Source: Escherichia phage phiP4
Sequence record: PP993145.1
Strand: one strand, 5' to 3'
DNA length: 64,000 bases
Shown: one piece after another, positions 31,264-64,000 of the stretch
Numbering within the stretch: position 1 is the first letter of the stretch
Layout of the letters: each line of letters opens with the position of its first letter
Made by a program: the position numbers and the translations under genes
Notes under the pieces: model-generated
What the model was told of the DNA's origin: nothing
The model's input: the letters and a program-made list of their open reading frames with translations, nothing else
Database searches by the model: none

Positions 31264-32256
31264 ATGAGGCTATATAAACCAGATAACGCAACCGTCTTAA
31301 AAGGTGCGCTGCGTAACCTGCTGGATGGTAGCAGAACAACCAGCATCCGGCATTTTGTTTTCAATATTGAAACTATTCATCAAAACTTTTTTGATGAATA
31401 TGACGCTTATAATATGAATAGTTTTCTACCGTTATATAAACAAGGGGCAACGCTTGTTTTGTATAATCAGGATTATCAATTGCTCACTAGTCGGGGGCCG
31501 GATACTGATTTCATAATCGTAAAAGGCAACACAGTAAAAGCCTATGATACTGGGGCGGGCTTAGAAGTTTTTTCAATAGAAAACTATGAGGCTAATGATA
31601 ATGATCTTTATGACGTAGAAAATTTTCTTGATTCATTTTGGCGTTATTTATCAGTTGGCTGGAATCGGTCGGATTCTGATGGGTATCGTTTTGCGGCTAT
31701 AATGGCCTTCGATGATAACGGTAATTTTTTGCTACCGTCGGAACTATGCCCGTATGTTTATAATGATCTGATACAGGAGGCCGGTTTTACTTTCTGGAAA
31801 GATGAGGATCAGATTATTAACAGTATAGAAAAACATGCTGTAAATTCTAACACTCAAAGCGTTATCACTCAAACTACTGAAAATAAAGGAAAAAACACTA
31901 TGACCAAGATCGCTAACATCGTTGCCGCCAATAAGTCTGCCGTTGTAAACGCTGCAAAACTGGAAGCGGGTAAAATTGCACTAACTCAAATCACGAAAGT
32001 AGCGGCTAAAAAAGCACCGTTCATGATCAAAGGTTATATCGATACGCCGATTGGTCGCGTAGTAATCGCTAACCTGCTGAGTGTAGCGGTTGACCAGTAC
32101 GCCCCGAGTAACCAGAAAGCGAAAGCGGTAGCGGGGGCGGCTATGGAAGCGGCAATGTTGGAAATGGTGCAAAGTTTTAACATCGCTGAGATGATCGATG
32201 AAATGGTAAAAGGTATCGATATTTCTACTTTTACCAATAACACCGAAAACGAGTAA
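31264..32256 (+). CDS. Hypothetical protein (330 aa), possibly two in-frame products (internal SD+ATG at 31900)
   Basis: Long ORF. The N-terminal ~210 aa are Asp/Asn/Phe/Tyr-rich, and the C-terminal ~118 aa are Ala/Lys-rich and amphipathic, preceded by AAGGAAAAAACACTATG. Confidence 0.6.
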   Translation: MRLYKPDNATVLKGALRNLLDGSRTTSIRHFVFNIETIHQNFFDEYDAYNMNSFLPLYKQGATLVLYNQDYQLLTSRGPDTDFIIVKGNTVKAYDTGAGLEVFSIENYEANDNDLYDVENFLDSFWRYLSVGWNRSDSDGYRFAAIMAFDDNGNFLLPSELCPYVYNDLIQEAGFTFWKDEDQIINSIEKHAVNSNTQSVITQTTENKGKNTMTKIANIVAANKSAVVNAAKLEAGKIALTQITKVAAKKAPFMIKGYIDTPIGRVVIANLLSVAVDQYAPSNQKAKAVAGAAMEAAMLEMVQSFNIAEMIDEMVKGIDISTFTNNTENE

Positions 32257-32283
32257 TAACTAGCCCATTGTAAAGTTTTGTAA

Positions 32284-32311
32284 AGGCCGCCTTTTATGGT
32301 GGCCTTTTTTG
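32284..32311 (+). terminator. Rho-independent terminator after the 330-aa ORF
   Basis: GGCCGCC-TTTTAT-GGTGGCC followed by TTTTTT. Confidence 0.7.
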
Positions 32312-32376
32312 TTATAATGCCTTTACACCGTTTGAGGACGGTTGAAAATTTTCCCAAAAAATTTTGGAGGCTTAAA

Positions 32377-32607
32377 ATGGTTGCTTTTTCTTCTTCTGAC
32401 GCTCTTTTCACTGGAAAAGGCTGGGTATCAAATCGCTGGATTATTCAGGAAATGGTGCAAGAGTACGGCATTGCTAAAACTTATACTACCATTCAGGCGC
32501 TTTATGATAATGATCAAATCGATCAGCAAACGGCGGGCTTTTTACTGGATACCCTGAAGGCGGAACACTGTACCAAAAAACAAGCCGCTAAAATTGTTTT
32601 AATGTAA
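32377..32607 (+). CDS. Hypothetical protein (76 aa from SD-preceded ATG 32377; ORF track start 32296)
   Basis: TTGGAGGCTTAAAATG ribosome-binding context. The ORF-track N-terminal extension overlaps the terminator. Confidence 0.55.
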   Translation: MVAFSSSDALFTGKGWVSNRWIIQEMVQEYGIAKTYTTIQALYDNDQIDQQTAGFLLDTLKAEHCTKKQAAKIVLM

Positions 32608-32656
32608 TTAATAACGGGGCGAAAGTATCGCCCCACTAACTAGGGGAGTATCACAA

Positions 32657-32839
32657 ATGATTATTTTTCGAGCTTTTTTAGCGGGTATCTTGGGAGCTAT
32701 TTTGACCCTTTTCGCCACCGCTTACGGTATTCAGGATTCCTATTGCGGTTTGGTAAACACAAAACCTATGGTTACTATAGGCGCTGGTATCGCTGTATTT
32801 TCTTATCTGCTGGGCTGCATGAATAGTAAAGGAGAATAA
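32657..32839 (+). CDS. Small two-TM membrane protein (60 aa)
   Basis: Hydrophobic segments FRAFLAGILGAILTLFATAYGI and VTIGAGIAVFSYLLGCM. SD taggggagtatcacaaATG. Confidence 0.55.
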   Translation: MIIFRAFLAGILGAILTLFATAYGIQDSYCGLVNTKPMVTIGAGIAVFSYLLGCMNSKGE

Positions 32840-32841
32840 AA

Positions 32842-33054
32842 ATGATCCGCAACGTTTCTCTTGCACGTTCGAAAGGTTTTAAGCTGGTGGACGCTAACAC
32901 GTTCGAGCGTCCAGATTGCAAGATCGAATATGTAGCACGTAATAAAAATGCCTTTCGTGTTACCGAGAAAAAATTTGATAAGCGCGGCAACGTGATCCTT
33001 GAAACGGTTAGGCACTTTGCCACCTTTTACGCTGCATTTCGTGGGGTACTATGA
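32842..33054 (+). CDS. Hypothetical basic protein (70 aa)
   Basis: SD aaaggagaataaaaATG. ATGA overlap with the next ORF. Confidence 0.55.
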   Translation: MIRNVSLARSKGFKLVDANTFERPDCKIEYVARNKNAFRVTEKKFDKRGNVILETVRHFATFYAAFRGVL

Positions 33055-33194
33055 AAAGCGTTATTGTTGTTATCCTTGCAATGGCTGGCGGTTTTATCGC
33101 CACCTTATTTAAGAATGATCCCACTTCGTTGGGTATCTTTATGCTTTTATCGGGCTATCTGATCGGGAGGTTGTCAAATGATAGCGCAAATTAA
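33051..33194 (+). CDS. Small membrane protein (47 aa)
   Basis: Hand-translated as MKSVIVVILAMAGGFIATLFKNDPTSLGIFMLLSGYLIGRLSNDSAN, translationally coupled. Confidence 0.45.
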   Translation: MKSVIVVILAMAGGFIATLFKNDPTSLGIFMLLSGYLIGRLSNDSAN

Positions 33195-33300
33195 AACGGC
33201 TTTTCGTTTTTGGGGCGTCCTGCCTTCAATTGGTTTTATTCTGATAATCATTAGTCAGCTAATGATTATCGTTGGCGTTATCTGGGAGCTATGCAAATGA
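33178..33300 (+). CDS. Small membrane protein (40 aa)
   Basis: MIAQIKTAFRFWGVLPSIGFILIIISQLMIIVGVIWELCK, preceded by an SD (GGGAGG). Confidence 0.45.
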   Translation: MIAQIKTAFRFWGVLPSIGFILIIISQLMIIVGVIWELCK

Positions 33301-33641
33301 TCATTTACGAGGGCAATCGCTTTGTTGCTAATTGCCGCCCGGCATTGTTAGCAAACTATTTAAACCAGCTTTCACCAGCTTATAAGGGCGTTATTAATAT
33401 TTACGAGGGCAAGGCGCATTATAAAATCAATGCGGTCGTTGCCCGTGAACTAGCGTTTCAATTTTTAACCTTTGCATCTTGCGACGTTCAGGTTATGGGT
33501 GAGGCGTTAATTGCAGAAAATGAAGACGATTTTATTAATATTTTCCGTAAGGTATGCACCGAGCGCCTGATAATCAAAGGCGCATATATTCAATCCACGG
33601 CTGATAGTATTGAAACAGCGTTTCGAAAGGTGGCGCAATGA
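33291..33641 (+). CDS. Hypothetical protein (116 aa)
   Basis: ORF coupled to its flanking small ORFs. No motif recognised. Confidence 0.55.
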   Translation: MQMIIYEGNRFVANCRPALLANYLNQLSPAYKGVINIYEGKAHYKINAVVARELAFQFLTFASCDVQVMGEALIAENEDDFINIFRKVCTERLIIKGAYIQSTADSIETAFRKVAQ

Positions 33642-60055: not shown

Positions 60056-60084
60056 ATTATATTAGAAATTTAGCTTCATAGCAA
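60056..60084 (-). promoter_or_regulatory. T5 early-type promoter (-35 TTGCTA, 17 bp, -10 TATAAT) driving the Ser/Met tRNAs
   Basis: The plus strand reads attata-N17-tagcaa. It overlaps the 3' end of the Toprim gene. Confidence 0.6.
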
Positions 60085-60580
60085 GAAAATTTTTCAAGTT
60101 TTCGGTAGACATCTCATCCACATCTACAGGAGAAACAAAGCCGTTTAATTTTCTAGCAAATTTTTCACCTGCAGGGTCATTATCCCCGACAGCTACCAAT
60201 TTAAAAGGTAATAATTTCAGTTGCTTTAATAACGCTTTTCCTGGAGAAGAACCCAACATTGCCAGGGCTGGATAACCAGCGTTATGTAACGCAACTGCCT
60301 TAAATACAGATTCAGCAATCAATACTACTTTTTCATCTCCATTGAGAGTTTCTAGTCCCCATACACACTGGATAGTAGAATAAGTAAAATATTTAGCTTC
60401 AAATGGGCACTTACCATGACCTTTTGGAGCAGAAGGATTATACGTCTGATAGCCTCTCAACATCCCAGAGAAGTCATACAACGGGACTGTTAGCCATCCT
60501 TCCGGACTTAACCAGCAATGATATTTATCTGTATCAAATCCTCTAGATAAGAGGTGCTGTGTTAGCTCATCAACATTCAT
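60062..60580 (-). CDS. Small Toprim-domain protein (172 aa from SD-preceded ATG 60580)
   Basis: Toprim signature: a conserved Glu (VLIAESVF) and DxD (VGDNDPAGEKFA). SD GAGAGAGGAACCAAATATG. It is embedded in the tRNA cluster. Confidence 0.6.
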   Translation of the reverse strand: MNVDELTQHLLSRGFDTDKYHCWLSPEGWLTVPLYDFSGMLRGYQTYNPSAPKGHGKCPFEAKYFTYSTIQCVWGLETLNGDEKVVLIAESVFKAVALHNAGYPALAMLGSSPGKALLKQLKLLPFKLVAVGDNDPAGEKFARKLNGFVSPVDVDEMSTENLKNFLAMKLNF

Positions 60581-60610
60581 ATTTGGTTCCTCTCTCAAAT
60601 TTATAGATAT

Positions 60611-60639
60611 ATTATACAGAGAATTTAGCATTCAAGCAA
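60611..60639 (-). promoter_or_regulatory. T5 early-type promoter (-35 TTGCTT, 17 bp, -10 TATAAT)
   Basis: The plus strand reads attata-N17-aagcaa. Confidence 0.65.
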
Positions 60640-60755
60640 TCAAATTTTTTAACTTTTTAGAGGAAAATCATATGGCACTTAAGGGTAGCAGATAAGTGGT
60701 GAGGACCAAAATTTGTGACCCCACTAAAAATCCGGGGGTAATTTTTAAAGACCCC

Positions 60756-60784
60756 TTGACATTTTCTCGGGGGTAGTGTAAAGT
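60756..60784 (+). promoter_or_regulatory. Plus-strand sigma70 promoter (-35 TTGACA, 17 bp, -10 TAAAGT) for the 60847-62463 operon
   Basis: ccccTTGACAttttctcgggggtagtgTAAAGTatacg, with an A/T-rich tract upstream. Confidence 0.45.
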
Positions 60785-60846
60785 ATACGTTATGGATGAG
60801 TGATCAAAGAGACACACATTTTCTATATACTAGGAGGTGTCAAAAA

Positions 60847-61833
60847 ATGACAGAAGAAGTAGCTAAGAGTCCTGAGACCGTCGCTAGCGTTGCAGCAGAA
60901 CTGCACCGTCACGAGGAATCGGATAAGAAAAAGTGGGAGAAGGTCAGAGCCTACGAAGAGAAACATCGCGAACACGACGATGAAGAAGATGACGATGATG
61001 AACATTGTCATAAATATGGAAAACATAAAATGCAAGAACCAGTAAACGTATTCACTAGTGGCTTCCCTGGCCTACTGGGTGGTTACCCAGCAAACGCAGG
61101 TGCTTTCGGTGGTGAAGGTATGGGACTATTCGGAGCTATCCTAATCGGTGCTCTATTAACAGGCGGATTCGGTGGTTTCGGTGGATTCGGTGGACGTGGT
61201 GTAGTTGGTGATGGTACCGCAGTTGATGCAGTACTTCAGAACCAAGATACCGCTAGTATTCTAGCAGCTATTAACACTACTCGTACAGAAGCTAACCAGG
61301 GTACTGGAGCTGTTTTAAGCGCAGTTAACAATGGTTTTAGCCAGACATCCCAAAACCAGAGCCGTGATACTCAGTCTGTACTAACTACGATCTATGGTAC
61401 AGGTGCTAATCTGTCTAATCAGATCTGCCAGGAAACTCGCAACGTTATTCAGGGTCAGTTCGATCTTTCTCGCCAGATTGATCAATCTTTCGCAGCTAAC
61501 CAGATAGCTCGTGCACAAGATAAGTTTGATTCTGCACAGATCGCTTTCCAGCAGACTTTACAAACTAATAACCAGTTTGCCGCTGTTCAGGCTCAGATGT
61601 GTGCTAACCAGAACTCTCTGGAACGTCAGATCGCTGAATGTTGCTGTGAACTTCAGACTGCGATCGCTGGTGTAACTACTGCGCGTATCCAGGATGAGTT
61701 AGACGCATGTCGCCTACGTGAAGCAATCGCTGCTGGTAGCGGTGCTAACGGTCAGGTAATTAATCAAATCGCTTTAAGTCTTGGTGCTATCACTCAGACT
61801 CTGGCTGGTCTGCAGGCTAAACTGCCGGCTTAA
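60847..61833 (+). CDS. Low-complexity protein: acidic/His-rich N-terminus, Gly-zipper hydrophobic segment, Gln/Asn/Ser/Thr/Ala-rich C-terminal 200 aa (328 aa from SD-preceded ATG 60847)
   Basis: AGGAGGTGTCAAAAAATG context. Segments EEKHREHDDEEDDDDEHCHKYGKH, GLFGAILIGALLTGGFGGFGGFGG, then repetitive Q/N-rich helices with an ECCCE motif. Opposite strand to all neighbours. Confidence 0.65.
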   Translation: MTEEVAKSPETVASVAAELHRHEESDKKKWEKVRAYEEKHREHDDEEDDDDEHCHKYGKHKMQEPVNVFTSGFPGLLGGYPANAGAFGGEGMGLFGAILIGALLTGGFGGFGGFGGRGVVGDGTAVDAVLQNQDTASILAAINTTRTEANQGTGAVLSAVNNGFSQTSQNQSRDTQSVLTTIYGTGANLSNQICQETRNVIQGQFDLSRQIDQSFAANQIARAQDKFDSAQIAFQQTLQTNNQFAAVQAQMCANQNSLERQIAECCCELQTAIAGVTTARIQDELDACRLREAIAAGSGANGQVINQIALSLGAITQTLAGLQAKLPA

Positions 61834-61854
61834 TATTAAGGGGAGGAGCCCATT

Positions 61855-62259
61855 ATGAGTAAATATGGTTTTGTAAATAACGGACTTAATCAAAGTATGG
61901 GCTCCCAGCAGCCCATGCCGGGTCTGGATAACCCCTACTTACAACAGTTGCAACAGCGTTTAGCAGAAGCGCAACAGATGCAGCAACAACTCCAGCAAAA
62001 CCCTGGAAGTGTGAGTCCTATGCAAATGATGCAGCAAATGAGCGGGCAGTCGCAAATGCCTCAACAAATGCAGCAACAGGTGCCGCAGCAGCAAACCCAA
62101 CAACCGCAGGTTTCTGCGGAAGGACAGGCAGTACTAGCCCTTTTCGAAGACTTCGCAAAGACAGAGGATGGGAAACAGCTTGTATCACTTATGGGTAAGT
62201 TTAATAGCTTCTGCCAAAGCCAAGTTGCAAAAGCTCAAAATGGTGGTAATAACTCCTAA
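61855..62259 (+). CDS. Gln-rich (prion-like composition) protein (134 aa)
   Basis: SD GGGGAGGAGCCCATTATG. QQLQQRLAEAQQMQQQLQQNPG...QMPQQMQQQVPQQQTQQPQ. Confidence 0.6.
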   Translation: MSKYGFVNNGLNQSMGSQQPMPGLDNPYLQQLQQRLAEAQQMQQQLQQNPGSVSPMQMMQQMSGQSQMPQQMQQQVPQQQTQQPQVSAEGQAVLALFEDFAKTEDGKQLVSLMGKFNSFCQSQVAKAQNGGNNS

Positions 62260-62268
62260 GGAGGAATT

Positions 62269-62463
62269 ATGTGTTGCAGAAAATCTGTTTCGTGCTGCCC
62301 AATGCCTGTAACACGTTGTTGCTCTCCAGCAATGTTTACGCAAATACCGGCGTTCAATCCGTTTGCCTTTAAACCTATTCTTATCCTGCCCCCTAGAGTA
62401 GATTTTCAGTCAAGATTGGCCTCCCGTATGGGTGGTTGCTGTACACCGAGAGTGTGGTTCTAA
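62269..62463 (+). CDS. Cys-pair-rich small protein (64 aa)
   Basis: SD AAGGAGGAATTATG. MCCRKSVSCCPMPVTRCCSP...GGCCTPRVWF has four CC doublets. Confidence 0.55.
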   Translation: MCCRKSVSCCPMPVTRCCSPAMFTQIPAFNPFAFKPILILPPRVDFQSRLASRMGGCCTPRVWF

Positions 62464-62476
62464 ACCAAAAAACAAA

Positions 62477-62510
62477 AGCCCCTGCCGAAAGGTAAGGGGC
62501 TTTTTCTTTT
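62477..62510 (+). terminator. Rho-independent terminator of the plus-strand operon
   Basis: GCCCCT-GCCGAAAGGTA-AGGGGC followed by TTTTTCTTTT. Confidence 0.75.
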
Positions 62511-62520
62511 GCCTTAAATA

Positions 62521-62555
62521 CAGAAAAGCCCGCGCTCTCGGAGGAAACGCGGGCT
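62521..62555 (-). terminator. Rho-independent terminator of the SPFH gene
   Basis: Minus strand AGCCCGCG-TTTCCTCCGAGA-GCGCGGGCT followed by TTTCTG. Confidence 0.65.
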
Positions 62556-62579
62556 TGGTTCGAAGATTACGTGTAACTA

Positions 62580-63527
62580 TTACTTGTTACGCATATCCAT
62601 GATCATTTGACCATCGTAGCCAGTACCTACCACAGTCTGAGGCACACCACCTTGATACTTCTGAGCACGAATCATTTCAACTTCCAGTTGCTTCCAGCGA
62701 ATCATCTCAGGAGTAATGGTACGTTGCAATGCGGCGTTAGCTTCAGCTTCTTTTTTAGCTGCGTACAGTTTAGCATCTGCGTCACGTTCGTTAGCAATAG
62801 CCTGGTTATTACGGGCTTCACGGTCTGCTTCTGCCTGTTTAACTTTTTGCTGTGCTTCTTGTTCAACACGAGCCAACTCAGCTTTTGCAGCATTAACTTG
62901 CTCTTCACGAACTTTGGTATTCTGTACCTGTTCCATGATTACTGGTGGCAGAGTAATATCCTGAAGGAATACCTGCTTAACTGTGTAACCATATGGGCGT
63001 GCATACTCTTCAACTTCTTGTTGAATTGCAGTTTGCAATTGAGCCTGAATTTTAGCATCAAACAAATCTTGTGCTTTAGGTACAGACTTACCAAACTCAC
63101 GAATAGTAGACAGTAATTTTTCAGTTACATATTTGTCTAACGCTTGATCCTGAGTACCCGCATTAATACGGTTAATCGGTGCCTTAGAACCATCAAACTG
63201 CAACATAACAGTCAGGTCAACAGTGGATTTAAACTTATCCTGGCTAGGAACCTGAAGTTTATCTAATTTTACAGCAATATCTTTTGTACTAAAAGTATCG
63301 AAAGATGCAAATGGGTTTACAAGATGGAAACCCGGTAATACTGGGTTAGGATCTACTTTACCCAGAAATGTTTGGGTTTTAACCGTACCATCAGAAACAA
63401 TAGTATATGAATTAAAGGCTAGAATCAAGCCTGCTAAACCAACTACAGCACCAATACCCCAACGTTTAATAGTACGAATTACTTTCTGCTCAGAAGTCAG
63501 TTCTTTCATATTTTTAGTATTAAACAT
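62580..63527 (-). CDS. SPFH/band-7 (prohibitin/HflC-like) membrane protein (315 aa)
   Basis: N-terminal TM segment (WGIGAVVGLAGLILAF), an SPFH-like core, and a long Ala/Glu/Gln/Lys coiled coil (EQVNAAKAELARVEQEAQQKVKQAEADREARNNQAIA...). Confidence 0.7.
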   Translation of the reverse strand: MFNTKNMKELTSEQKVIRTIKRWGIGAVVGLAGLILAFNSYTIVSDGTVKTQTFLGKVDPNPVLPGFHLVNPFASFDTFSTKDIAVKLDKLQVPSQDKFKSTVDLTVMLQFDGSKAPINRINAGTQDQALDKYVTEKLLSTIREFGKSVPKAQDLFDAKIQAQLQTAIQQEVEEYARPYGYTVKQVFLQDITLPPVIMEQVQNTKVREEQVNAAKAELARVEQEAQQKVKQAEADREARNNQAIANERDADAKLYAAKKEAEANAALQRTITPEMIRWKQLEVEMIRAQKYQGGVPQTVVGTGYDGQMIMDMRNK

Positions 63528-63636: not shown

Positions 63637-64000
63637 TTTAAGTATTTTTAAGAACTCTCGTAAAAACTCTTAAAAATACAGACGATACCGGGAGAGTCAT
63701 AAGTCTCACTCATTAAGTATTTCAAGACAAAATACAGTAACGTCTATTATTTTCCAGTTTAAGTCAAGGTGACTTAGTGGTTATGTCCTGCGGTATATTG
63801 AGGACTCGGTTAGGCTTGGGGTCATGACTTCCCGCCTTTTGCTGCTACTCAACAGGAGTTATCGCGAATTACCTGTGCTATTGTGCACCATTAGTGACAT
63901 CTCTCATGTCAGCATTTCCCACTTTGTGGATAGCTTGAAAAACTACTCCGATATGGAGAAAGAACTTCACTATCCTAGAATACCTTCTAAAGTTCTTCTT

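Follow-up and report, generated by a model that had tools for sequence, protein, structure and literature searches.

Morons are accessory phage units that Hendrix and colleagues reportedly defined for lambdoid phages, each carrying its own promoter and terminator. Some accessory phage proteins act at the membrane, among them the membrane-bound superinfection-exclusion proteins Imm and Sp of T4, SieA of P22 and the lactococcal Sie2009. Within a 64,000-nucleotide stretch of Escherichia phage phiP4 (PP993145.1; the window hereafter), a plus-strand cassette at positions 60,756 to 62,510 encodes three proteins, designated here P1, P2 and P3, that correspond to T5.077, T5.078 and T5.079 of phage T5 (NC_005859). 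The window region shares 97–98% identity with T5-like phages (Tequintavirus), the best match being Salmonella phage GSP044. The cassette is a phage moron, showing every defining feature of such units that could be assessed in this analysis. With the superinfection-exclusion proteins it has in common the character of a small to mid-size, apparently membrane-anchored accessory function that is dispensable in the laboratory and often forms an autonomous unit; it differs in lacking any sequence or profile similarity to them, and none of them combines a glycine zipper with a long helix and a cysteine triplet (CCC) or has two soluble partners.

The explanation favoured here, given a probability of roughly 0.3, is that P1 forms a membrane-anchored helical assembly, locked or anchored by the CCC motif, with P2 and P3 as cytoplasmic partners, and that the whole would confer a non-essential benefit at the cell envelope.

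A dispensable moron of T5-like phages

In a blastn comparison with Tequintavirus Bas31 (DaisyDussoix), homology stops at 60623 and restarts at 62518, and the SPFH gene and Toprim gene on either side are separated by 96 bp in Bas31. Because homology breaks exactly at its edges, the 1.9-kb block containing the promoter, three open reading frames (ORFs) and terminator is a clean indel that separates the T5.076-like Toprim gene from the SPFH gene; the same block is present in Bas32. The left neighbours of the cassette vary between phages, with a NadR/PnuC pair replacing the Toprim gene in Sepoy (Epseptimavirus). Of 413 phage records that matched a query of the operon with its flanks, at least 221 matched the operon itself, a lower bound set by megablast sensitivity.

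The viable laboratory mutant T5 st0, with a genome of 113,238 bp against 121,750 bp in the wild type, lacks T5.077 to T5.079 together with the SPFH gene, tRNA-Arg and RNAX; its junction lies directly after tRNA-Asp and the sequence restarts just before the endolysin gene. As the cassette is gone from this viable mutant and from some Tequintaviruses, it is dispensable. The preliminary description of this locus, made from the sequence alone, had held that disruption of the ORFs in close relatives would count against its interpretation; the whole cassette is indeed absent from some relatives, however it is intact and conserved wherever it is present, and its loss therefore does not imply that it is non-functional.

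The cassette resembles described morons in being a discrete block that close relatives carry or lack at one position, in bringing a promoter and a terminator of its own as judged from the sequence, in its deviant base composition (47% GC compared with 39% for the window) and in not being required for lytic growth. The GC excess is due in part to the Ala-, Gly- and Gln-rich composition of the encoded proteins. In contrast to described morons, the T5-type cassette is carried by a strictly virulent phage, for which reason it cannot work by lysogenic conversion, and its three genes are unassigned and include no recognisable fitness factor.

It is highly improbable that the three ORFs are functionless, decaying cargo of a mobile DNA segment. 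Such a view could appeal to the dispensability of the cassette, to its absence from many relatives, and to a CRISPRi-ART knock-down screen of T5 in which each of T5.077, T5.078, T5.079 and T5.080 carries the entries 'unknown function' and 'Not Fit' (PMC11879866 supplements). However, each of the three ORFs is intact at every one of 16 loci over a P1 identity range of 40–98%, the strong Shine-Dalgarno (SD) sites are kept across these loci, and specific segments and motifs are conserved. The variable sites of P3 are enriched at third codon positions (7, 5 and 13 sites at the three positions), and P1 is one of a very large family that shares an invariant motif.

The features of the cassette are collected in Table 1. 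The preliminary description of a lone plus-strand unit was borne out, as all 22 tRNAs and every other credible ORF from about 33.7 to 64 kb lie on the minus strand, and its promoter, three near-perfect SD sites and strong terminator can be read in the sequence and are annotated in AJ604531 and NC_005859. Both records give the same layout of promoter P12, three ribosome-binding sites (RBS), ORFs of 327, 138 and 64 amino acids (aa) and a bidirectional terminator; the operon is not new as an annotation, its three hypothetical ORFs having stood in public records since 2004. A consensus scan of the promoter gave 10 of 12 matches (TTGACA at 60756-61, a 17-nt spacer and TAAAGT at 60779-84), and the terminator hairpin has a folding energy of -21.4 kcal/mol (z = -3.97), with none of 200 shuffled sequences folding equally well. 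The start of P1 was taken at 60847, the annotated and SD-preceded ATG, where a program-made ORF list gives 60796. The biased codon usage previously noted for the unit holds for P1 (GGT 0.71, GCT 0.60, CAG 0.77) but not for P2 or P3, and the P1 bias is not foreign in character, resembling that of the phage's own late structural genes. A second plus-strand ORF group (330, 103 and 116 aa) lies at 31264-33641 of the window in an otherwise minus-strand region.

Table 1. Features of the cassette, in window coordinates. AF2, AlphaFold2; KD19, Kyte-Doolittle hydropathy over 19 residues.
Feature	Position	Strand	Basis or remark
Cassette (moron) extent	60624..62517	.	blastn: in this phage, absent from Tequintavirus Bas31
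Sigma-70-type promoter TTGACA-N17-TAAAGT, = T5 promoter P12	60756..60784	+	Sequence; P12 annotated in AJ604531 and NC_005859
P1 Shine-Dalgarno AGGAGG	60832..60837	+	9 nt upstream of ATG 60847; RBS annotated in AJ604531
P1, 328 aa, T5.077 homologue (phrog_8119)	60847..61833	+	ORF reading, profile matches
P1 residues 12-44, charged N-terminal helix, T5-type branch only	60880..60978	+	AF2 pLDDT 92-96; absent from remote members
P1 residues 41-60 REHDDEEDDDDEHCHKYGKH, acidic and His-rich stretch	60967..61026	+	Expanded to poly-His in some relatives
P1 residues 91-116 GMGLFGAILIGALLTGGFGGFGGFGG, glycine-zipper hydrophobic peptide, family hallmark	61117..61194	+	KD19 1.72; resembles HA2 fusion peptide
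P1 residues 125-325, Q/N/S/T/A-rich helical domain	61219..61821	+	AF2 helices 125-162, 171-298, 304-325; periodicity 3.6 residues
P1 invariant Cys triplet C265-C266-C267	61639..61647	+	Sole invariant columns among 98 family members
P2 Shine-Dalgarno GGAGG	61842..61846	+	Precedes ATG 61855; annotated RBS
P2, 134 aa, T5.078 homologue (phrog_7894), variable Gln-rich middle	61855..62259	+	
P2 residues 85-127, conserved C-terminal domain (…LALFEDFAKTEDGKQLVSLMGKFNSFCQSQVAK)	62107..62235	+	63-84% identity; rest of P2 25-46%
P3 Shine-Dalgarno AAGGAGG, overlaps P2 stop codon	62258..62264	+	Precedes ATG 62269; annotated RBS
P3, 64 aa, T5.079 homologue: MCC start, four CC doublets, 14% Pro	62269..62463	+	
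Cassette intrinsic terminator, hairpin 62474-62504 and U-tract	62474..62510	+	Annotated ter1, 'efficient bidirectional terminator' (AJ604531, NC_005859)

The P1 family and its putative membrane segment

The preliminary description recognised no family for any of the three proteins, and none has a named family in Pfam, NCBIfam, PADLOC or the PDB; P1, however, is no orphan. An exhaustive profile search identified 657 cluster representatives at 50% identity with E <= 1e-3, 61 of them at <= 1e-10, where a word-indexed search found 30 clusters only. P1 matches phrog_8119 (2.7e-204) and P2 matches phrog_7894 (4.3e-76), a cluster of unassigned function. The P1 family as a whole maps to PHROGs 16490, 8119 and 9288, none functionally assigned, with phrog_16490 matched by 83 of 98 members. 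These PHROGs are sequence clusters only and membership in them gives no mechanism. When P1 to P3, 98 family members and 10 conserved neighbours were searched against Pfam, NCBIfam, PADLOC and PHROG, the only matches were to unannotated PHROGs and DUF7841, and the PADLOC defence-system models gave no match for P1, P2, P3 or remote P1 members. In the literature, T5.077 to T5.080, DUF7841 and these PHROG identifiers are absent from the main text of the papers searched.

P1 has all three traits of the family, namely an N-proximal Gly-rich hydrophobic peptide, a helical domain of about 130–200 aa and the invariant CCC. The triplet occurs in nearly all of 150 listed representatives, and in a 98-sequence alignment with a mean column identity of 12% its three cysteines are the only invariant columns, followed by the nearly invariant G107, G112, G115 and G118 of the hydrophobic peptide. 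The P1 motifs given in the preliminary description, including GLFGAILIGALLTGGFGGFGGFGG at residues 93-116 and ECCCE at 264-268 as well as the acidic and His-rich stretch at 41-60, are all present. Carriers of the family include crAss-like contigs, Bacteroides phage C3_41T2LP, Butyrivibrio phage Ceridwen, Edwardsiella phage eiAU, Vibrio phage 1.259.O and numerous contigs of phage size that had been binned with Bacillota and Bacteroidota from gut and rumen.

Clustering of neighbouring ORFs in about 130 loci defined a conserved cassette of other composition in the remote main branch of the family (seen at loci L025-L101, L134-L136, L132 and L003-L008). Upstream of the P1 homologue it encodes one or two Gln-rich proteins. 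The downstream genes specify a beta-rich protein of about 150 aa that contains CC doublets, a charged or R/Y/G-rich protein, a DC[VA]IRA protein of about 123 aa and, in many cases, DUF7841. The corresponding PHROGs comprise the Gln-rich proteins of 144-166 aa and about 70 aa (phrog_22984), the beta-rich CC protein (phrog_20016) and the DC[VA]IRA protein (phrog_3754); the cassette of Bacteroides and crAss-type phages additionally encodes a small metallopeptidase of the HExxH 'PolyVal' type. None of the remote partner proteins has a signal peptide or matches a characterised protein. The remote cassette is found between tail fibres and holin-endolysin genes, inside the head module or after the tail genes, and these differing contexts indicate that it too is mobile. 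In Vibrio phage 1.259.O, a 177-aa P1-family gene and a 65-aa ORF form a lone opposite-strand unit (L133 2095-2835) flanked on one side by an M15 endolysin with two transmembrane (TM) proteins and on the other by a small lipoprotein gene, the 'island' layout also seen in T5.

The AF2 model of P1, built from 100 sequences, has a pLDDT of 66 overall and 78-87 for residues 170-250, and predicts a confident helix at 12-44, a disordered acidic/His- and Gly-rich region, and the three long helices listed in Table 1. The repeats previously described in this helical domain could not be demonstrated, the hydrophobic periodicity being about 3.6 without a clean heptad. A canonical coiled coil was considered and rejected, heptad periodicity not being supported family-wide; owing to the 3.6 periodicity and the rarity of heptad power, the helices are described here as long and amphipathic. 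Foldseek searches with the AF2 models against PDB and viral models gave no match with E < 0.6, returning vimentin rods and miscellaneous helices only.

P1 has a single hydrophobic segment, residues 91-116. Across the family, the hydrophobic core has a median Kyte-Doolittle value over 13 residues of 2.24, exceeding 1.6 in 86% of members, and begins at a median residue of 42 (243 members). Lys and Arg are richer on its C-terminal flank in 120 members and on its N-terminal flank in 14, and the charge of the C-terminal domain is very low (K 2.2%, E 3.7%). The flanking charge, the absence of signal peptides from the partners and the tracking of the P1 C-terminus by the conserved P2 domain favour, at the level of sequence, a putative cytoplasmic location of the helical domain.

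The opposite topology, N-terminus in and C-terminus out, would place the large domain of P1 on the outer face of the inner membrane as a helical fibre stapled by disulfides, CCC serving as an interchain cystine knot; adjacent cysteines staple extracellular helical oligomers such as collagen III and COMP. Such a fibre would modify the envelope, for example by blocking, from the periplasmic side, the DNA entry of superinfecting phages, with P2 and P3 acting on the cytoplasmic head. This arrangement is unlikely, although several observations speak for it. The 90-residue T5-type head is highly charged and has no signal peptide, and should remain inside, and this N-terminal extension co-occurs with P2 and P3, both being found in the T5-type branch and L024 and neither in remote members. 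The C-terminal domain, rich in Q/N/S/T/A with few charges, is typical of exported helical proteins, and the resemblance of P1 discussed below is to the HA2 ectodomain. However, the family-wide bias in flanking charge runs the other way, the best-conserved stretch of P2 parallels the C-terminal region of P1, and not its head, in conservation, and many members have exactly three cysteines. The family is also most abundant in phages of strict gut and rumen anaerobes, hosts that, to our knowledge, generally lack periplasmic disulfide-forming systems.

When the family profile was compared with PDB sequences, the top matches were all class I fusion proteins, HA2 residues 4-91 (22 bits, E = 1e-3) and coronavirus S2, raising the alternative that P1 is a fusion-protein-like membrane remodeller in which a Gly-rich peptide and refolding helices would perturb or fuse membranes. 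Variants of this alternative include an accessory lysis or membrane-repair device and, in other phages, an ejected protein that opens the host membrane. For the HA2 segment the real score was 21.4 bits, compared with 3.0 +/- 3.0 (maximum 18.0) for region-preserving shuffles, and 0 of 3000 reached it; the resemblance therefore depends on residue order, yet remains marginal, with E only 1e-3. The hydrophobic peptide of T5 P1 begins with GLFGAI, identical to the start of the HA2 fusion peptide. As in influenza HA2 and coronavirus S2, a hydrophobic peptide rich in Gly (GLFGAI…GG·G) precedes a long N/Q/S/T-rich helix in P1, and Pfam CoV_S2 matched one family member weakly. Some crAss-like records name P1 homologues 'spike protein/glycoprotein' and others 'outer capsid protein/viral fiber', labels that presumably stem from similar weak matches. 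The cassette is frequently within a few kb of endolysin or holin genes, and the hydrophobic core of the Vibrio 1.259.O member, LLWLLLLL, is at 8 residues too short to span a bilayer.

A remodeller of this kind is nevertheless rather unlikely for P1. All the HA2 matches represent a single family at a marginal E value, P1 alone had no match to PDB sequences below E = 0.06, and the fold searches were null (E > 0.6). P1 has no C-terminal TM anchor besides the fusion-like peptide and no second heptad region with such an anchor; the AF2 monomer shows the three long helices with no packed hairpin and shows no evidence of a six-helix bundle. Unlike class I fusion proteins, P1 also lacks a demonstrable HR1/HR2 hairpin, a receptor-binding subunit and a cleavage site, and is made inside a bacterial cell. 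Membership in this class fails for want of the second membrane anchor, and the HA2 resemblance is kept as a 'works-like' lead. T5-like phages moreover are reported to encode a holin and an endolysin already, besides a separate pair of overlapping spanins (PMC6658699; PMC4342426), the cassette is dispensable, and the family is also found in phages of hosts without an outer membrane.

A spanin role for P1 and P3 was also considered and rejected. Like the two-component spanins exemplified by lambda Rz/Rz1, the cassette pairs a membrane-anchored helical protein containing conserved cysteines with a small Pro/Cys-rich partner, a few kb from the endolysin gene. However, P3 begins MCCRKSV… and has neither a lipobox nor a hydrophobic signal sequence, its maximum KD19 being 1.13 in mid-protein; the cassette genes are neither embedded nor overlapping, and the T5-like spanin pair, the dispensability and the carriers whose hosts lack an outer membrane apply here as well.

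Conservation of the three-gene module and its neighbours

P1-, P2- and P3-like ORFs are kept together in divergent T5-like contigs in which P1 is about 40% identical, and in a non-T5 contig of 61.7 kb with an adjoining Mu-type portal and terminase. Identity across these modules is 60-74% for the CCC-containing residues 251-328 of P1, but 16-48% in the Gln-rich P2 tract, in the head of P1 and in the central portion of its helical domain. P3 is intact in all 16 loci, with an MCC start in each and further CC doublets, and diverges fast except for its cysteines; its length of 64 aa and four CC doublets in phiP4 are as previously described. P2 and P3 are specific to the T5-type branch, the branch whose P1 has the long charged N-terminal head, and the P2 hidden Markov model (HMM) had no matches beyond the T5-type module. 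Neither the P2 nor the P3 product has a hydrophobic signal peptide.

The spacing of the two downstream genes is tight, with the P2 stop and P3 start 1–10 nt apart or overlapping as TAATG. In all close T5 relatives P2 and P3 lie in one frame with a single TAA and three codons between them (window 62257-62271). Stop-codon read-through fusing P2 to P3 was considered and rejected; the shared frame is lost in the divergent modules L022-L024, which makes programmed read-through unlikely.

Many T5-like GenBank and RefSeq records, such as AY587007 and Sepoy NC_048760, name P2 homologues 'cAMP-dependent protein kinase catalytic subunit'. No kinase domain was found in the 134-aa P2 with Pfam or NCBIfam (E up to 1 or 0.01), and the label is most likely a propagated poly-Gln artefact.

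The cysteine and histidine content of the module suggests a further alternative, in which the His-rich/acidic head, CCC and metallothionein-like CC/CxC peptides would bind Zn, Cu, Ni or Fe-S at the membrane. Poly-His heads in relatives (HHYHHHHHEH…), the CC doublets of P3, the CGCGCG or CxC tails of 129 of 390 members, the invariance of CCC and the His-rich partner that follows the P1 homologue in phage eiAU are all consistent with metal handling. This role is nonetheless improbable, as no metal-binding family was matched in Pfam or NCBIfam, the His-rich head is limited to one branch and poorly conserved (16-37% identity across modules), P3 diverges rapidly apart from its cysteines, and no transporter or enzyme is associated with the module. 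The eiAU partner, gp09 (L010 7541-7906), is a strikingly His-rich protein of 121 aa that echoes the His-rich head of T5-type P1. In remote P1 members, the tails just mentioned are Cys/Pro-rich and fused to the C-terminus. The possibility that P3 is such a tail split off was rejected: against a profile of the 129 tails, 1141-1985 of 2000 P3 shuffles scored at least as high as P3, and the likeness is one of composition only.

The low complexity of the three proteins had also suggested an amyloid or condensate-like matrix, possibly organised by the SPFH protein. The Gln content of P2 reported earlier as about 40% is 26% overall, although it reaches about 48% within residues 29-84 only. This Gln-rich core, the Q/N-rich helices of P1 and the Gln-rich and R/Y/G-rich small proteins encoded by remote cassettes would suit a matrix, but it is decidedly improbable. 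The Gln-rich middle is the least constrained part of P2, whose folded C-terminal domain is conserved, and P1 after residue 125 is predicted to be helical, neither beta-rich nor disordered. Kinship of P2 with the Gln-rich proteins beside remote P1 homologues was likewise rejected, hhalign probability being at most 35% over 6 columns, and the SPFH association is unconserved in both directions.

The convergent gene at 62580-63527 on the minus strand (T5.080) does encode an SPFH/Band_7 protein (Pfam E = 2e-17), as stated in the preliminary description, but the proposal that the module works with it did not hold. The module occurs without a downstream SPFH gene in L022, L023 and L024, and SPFH without the module in Bas31; the cassette and the SPFH gene are separate transcription units, each with its own terminator, and neither the conserved co-occurrence nor the co-transcription of an SPFH/NfeD-type partnership was found. 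Functional coupling was rejected on this basis, and since SPFH is not conserved with the module the adjacency is regarded as coincidental.

The SPFH protein, widely labelled 'lipoprotein' via phrog_200, lacks a lipobox cysteine and carries a transmembrane helix at its N-terminus. The minus-strand SPFH terminator hairpin (window 62526-62556) holds the Pu-GCGC consensus, with GCGC at 62533-62536, and the T5 record annotates a 'major DNA single-chain interruption' (nick) at the equivalent position. Bas31, without the cassette, keeps both the hairpin and GCGC. Beyond the SPFH gene, window positions 63637-64000 (minus strand) correspond to the beginning of 'RNAX', which is annotated beside tRNA-Arg in T5 and AJ604531 as a stable RNA about 720-785 nt long.

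On the other side, the divergent neighbour at 60062-60631 (minus strand) is the T5.076 Toprim or 'DNA primase-like' protein, which matches the PADLOC model RTasDnaG-like (DRT) with E = 5.9e-7. In a published re-annotation of T5, T5.076 is listed as an anti-defence gene ('subverts retron-mediated defense') and as 'Semi-Fit' (PMC11879866 supplements). The location of the cassette, adjoining this gene within the tRNA island, fits an accessory role.

A possible envelope function and its implications

The membrane-associated, assembly-forming character proposed in the preliminary description is plausible for P1, given its credible membrane segment and long helices, although the SPFH link that accompanied it is not. 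From this architecture we infer that P1 would enter the cytoplasmic membrane via its glycine-zipper hydrophobic peptide, and that its roughly 200 residues of long, uncharged, Q/N-rich amphipathic helices would self-associate. The assembly could be locked or anchored by the invariant Cys triplet, acting through a covalent bond, a bridging metal or a lipid. P2, with its Gln-rich helix-prone middle and conserved C-terminal domain, and P3 would be cytoplasmic partners binding P1, and the tight gene spacing looks as if the products were translationally coupled. The resulting complex may form a membrane-associated protein layer, whose benefit would most plausibly be the exclusion of other incoming phage DNA, or protection from a membrane-acting host defence or premature lysis.

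Several points weigh against this explanation. The envelope or exclusion role is drawn only from architecture and moron logic, as neither homology nor experiment ties P1, P2 or P3 to a function. The 'Not Fit' scores, which agree with the dispensability of the cassette, are weak evidence because the endolysin gene is likewise 'Not Fit' in the same screen (PMC11879866 supplements). AF2 confidence for P1 is moderate, with a pTM of 0.27, and the hydrophobic periodicity is 3.6, not 3.5, with heptad power reaching significance in no more than 25 of 272 members. Family members from other phages lie within structural or lysis-proximal blocks, which could point to a different role. If the 90-residue charged T5-type head stays cytoplasmic, a single-span helix would put the C-terminal domain outside, away from P2 and P3, and the low-charge C-terminal domain and HA2-ectodomain resemblance look extracytoplasmic. 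Monotopic or hairpin insertion of the glycine zipper from the cytoplasmic face would reconcile the two lines of topological evidence, and would fit the short core of the Vibrio member.

Overall, the observations of the preliminary description are confirmed and its interpretation is partly supported. The existence of the operon, its signals and its dispensability are known or derivable from public records, and the genetic packaging is that of an ordinary moron. What is new is the scale of the P1 family, spanning T5-like, crAss-like, Bacteroidota, Bacillota, Vibrio and Edwardsiella phages, together with its invariant CCC and fusion-peptide-like segment; no Pfam model, structure or paper covering the family was found. 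The P1–P3 protein system is rated outside the known kinds because no defining test places it in a known family and because the family is large and has an invariant motif.

A bolder and improbable proposal is that P1 founds a very large phage family of mechanistic, perhaps evolutionary, counterparts of class I fusion proteins that would remodel or breach the host cytoplasmic membrane. If so, tailed phages infecting Gram-negative as well as Gram-positive bacteria, crAss-like phages among them, would employ an HA2-like peptide and refolding helices locked by a Cys triplet, and T5, where the gene is dispensable, would be a tractable model of the family.

Being so widespread and strongly constrained, the module must serve something general in phage infection. 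The availability of cassette-minus (Bas31, T5 st0) beside cassette-plus (Bas32, T5 wild type) strains makes its function directly approachable in E. coli, and T5 offers a tractable way into a conserved dark-matter module whose gut phage carriers are difficult to culture.

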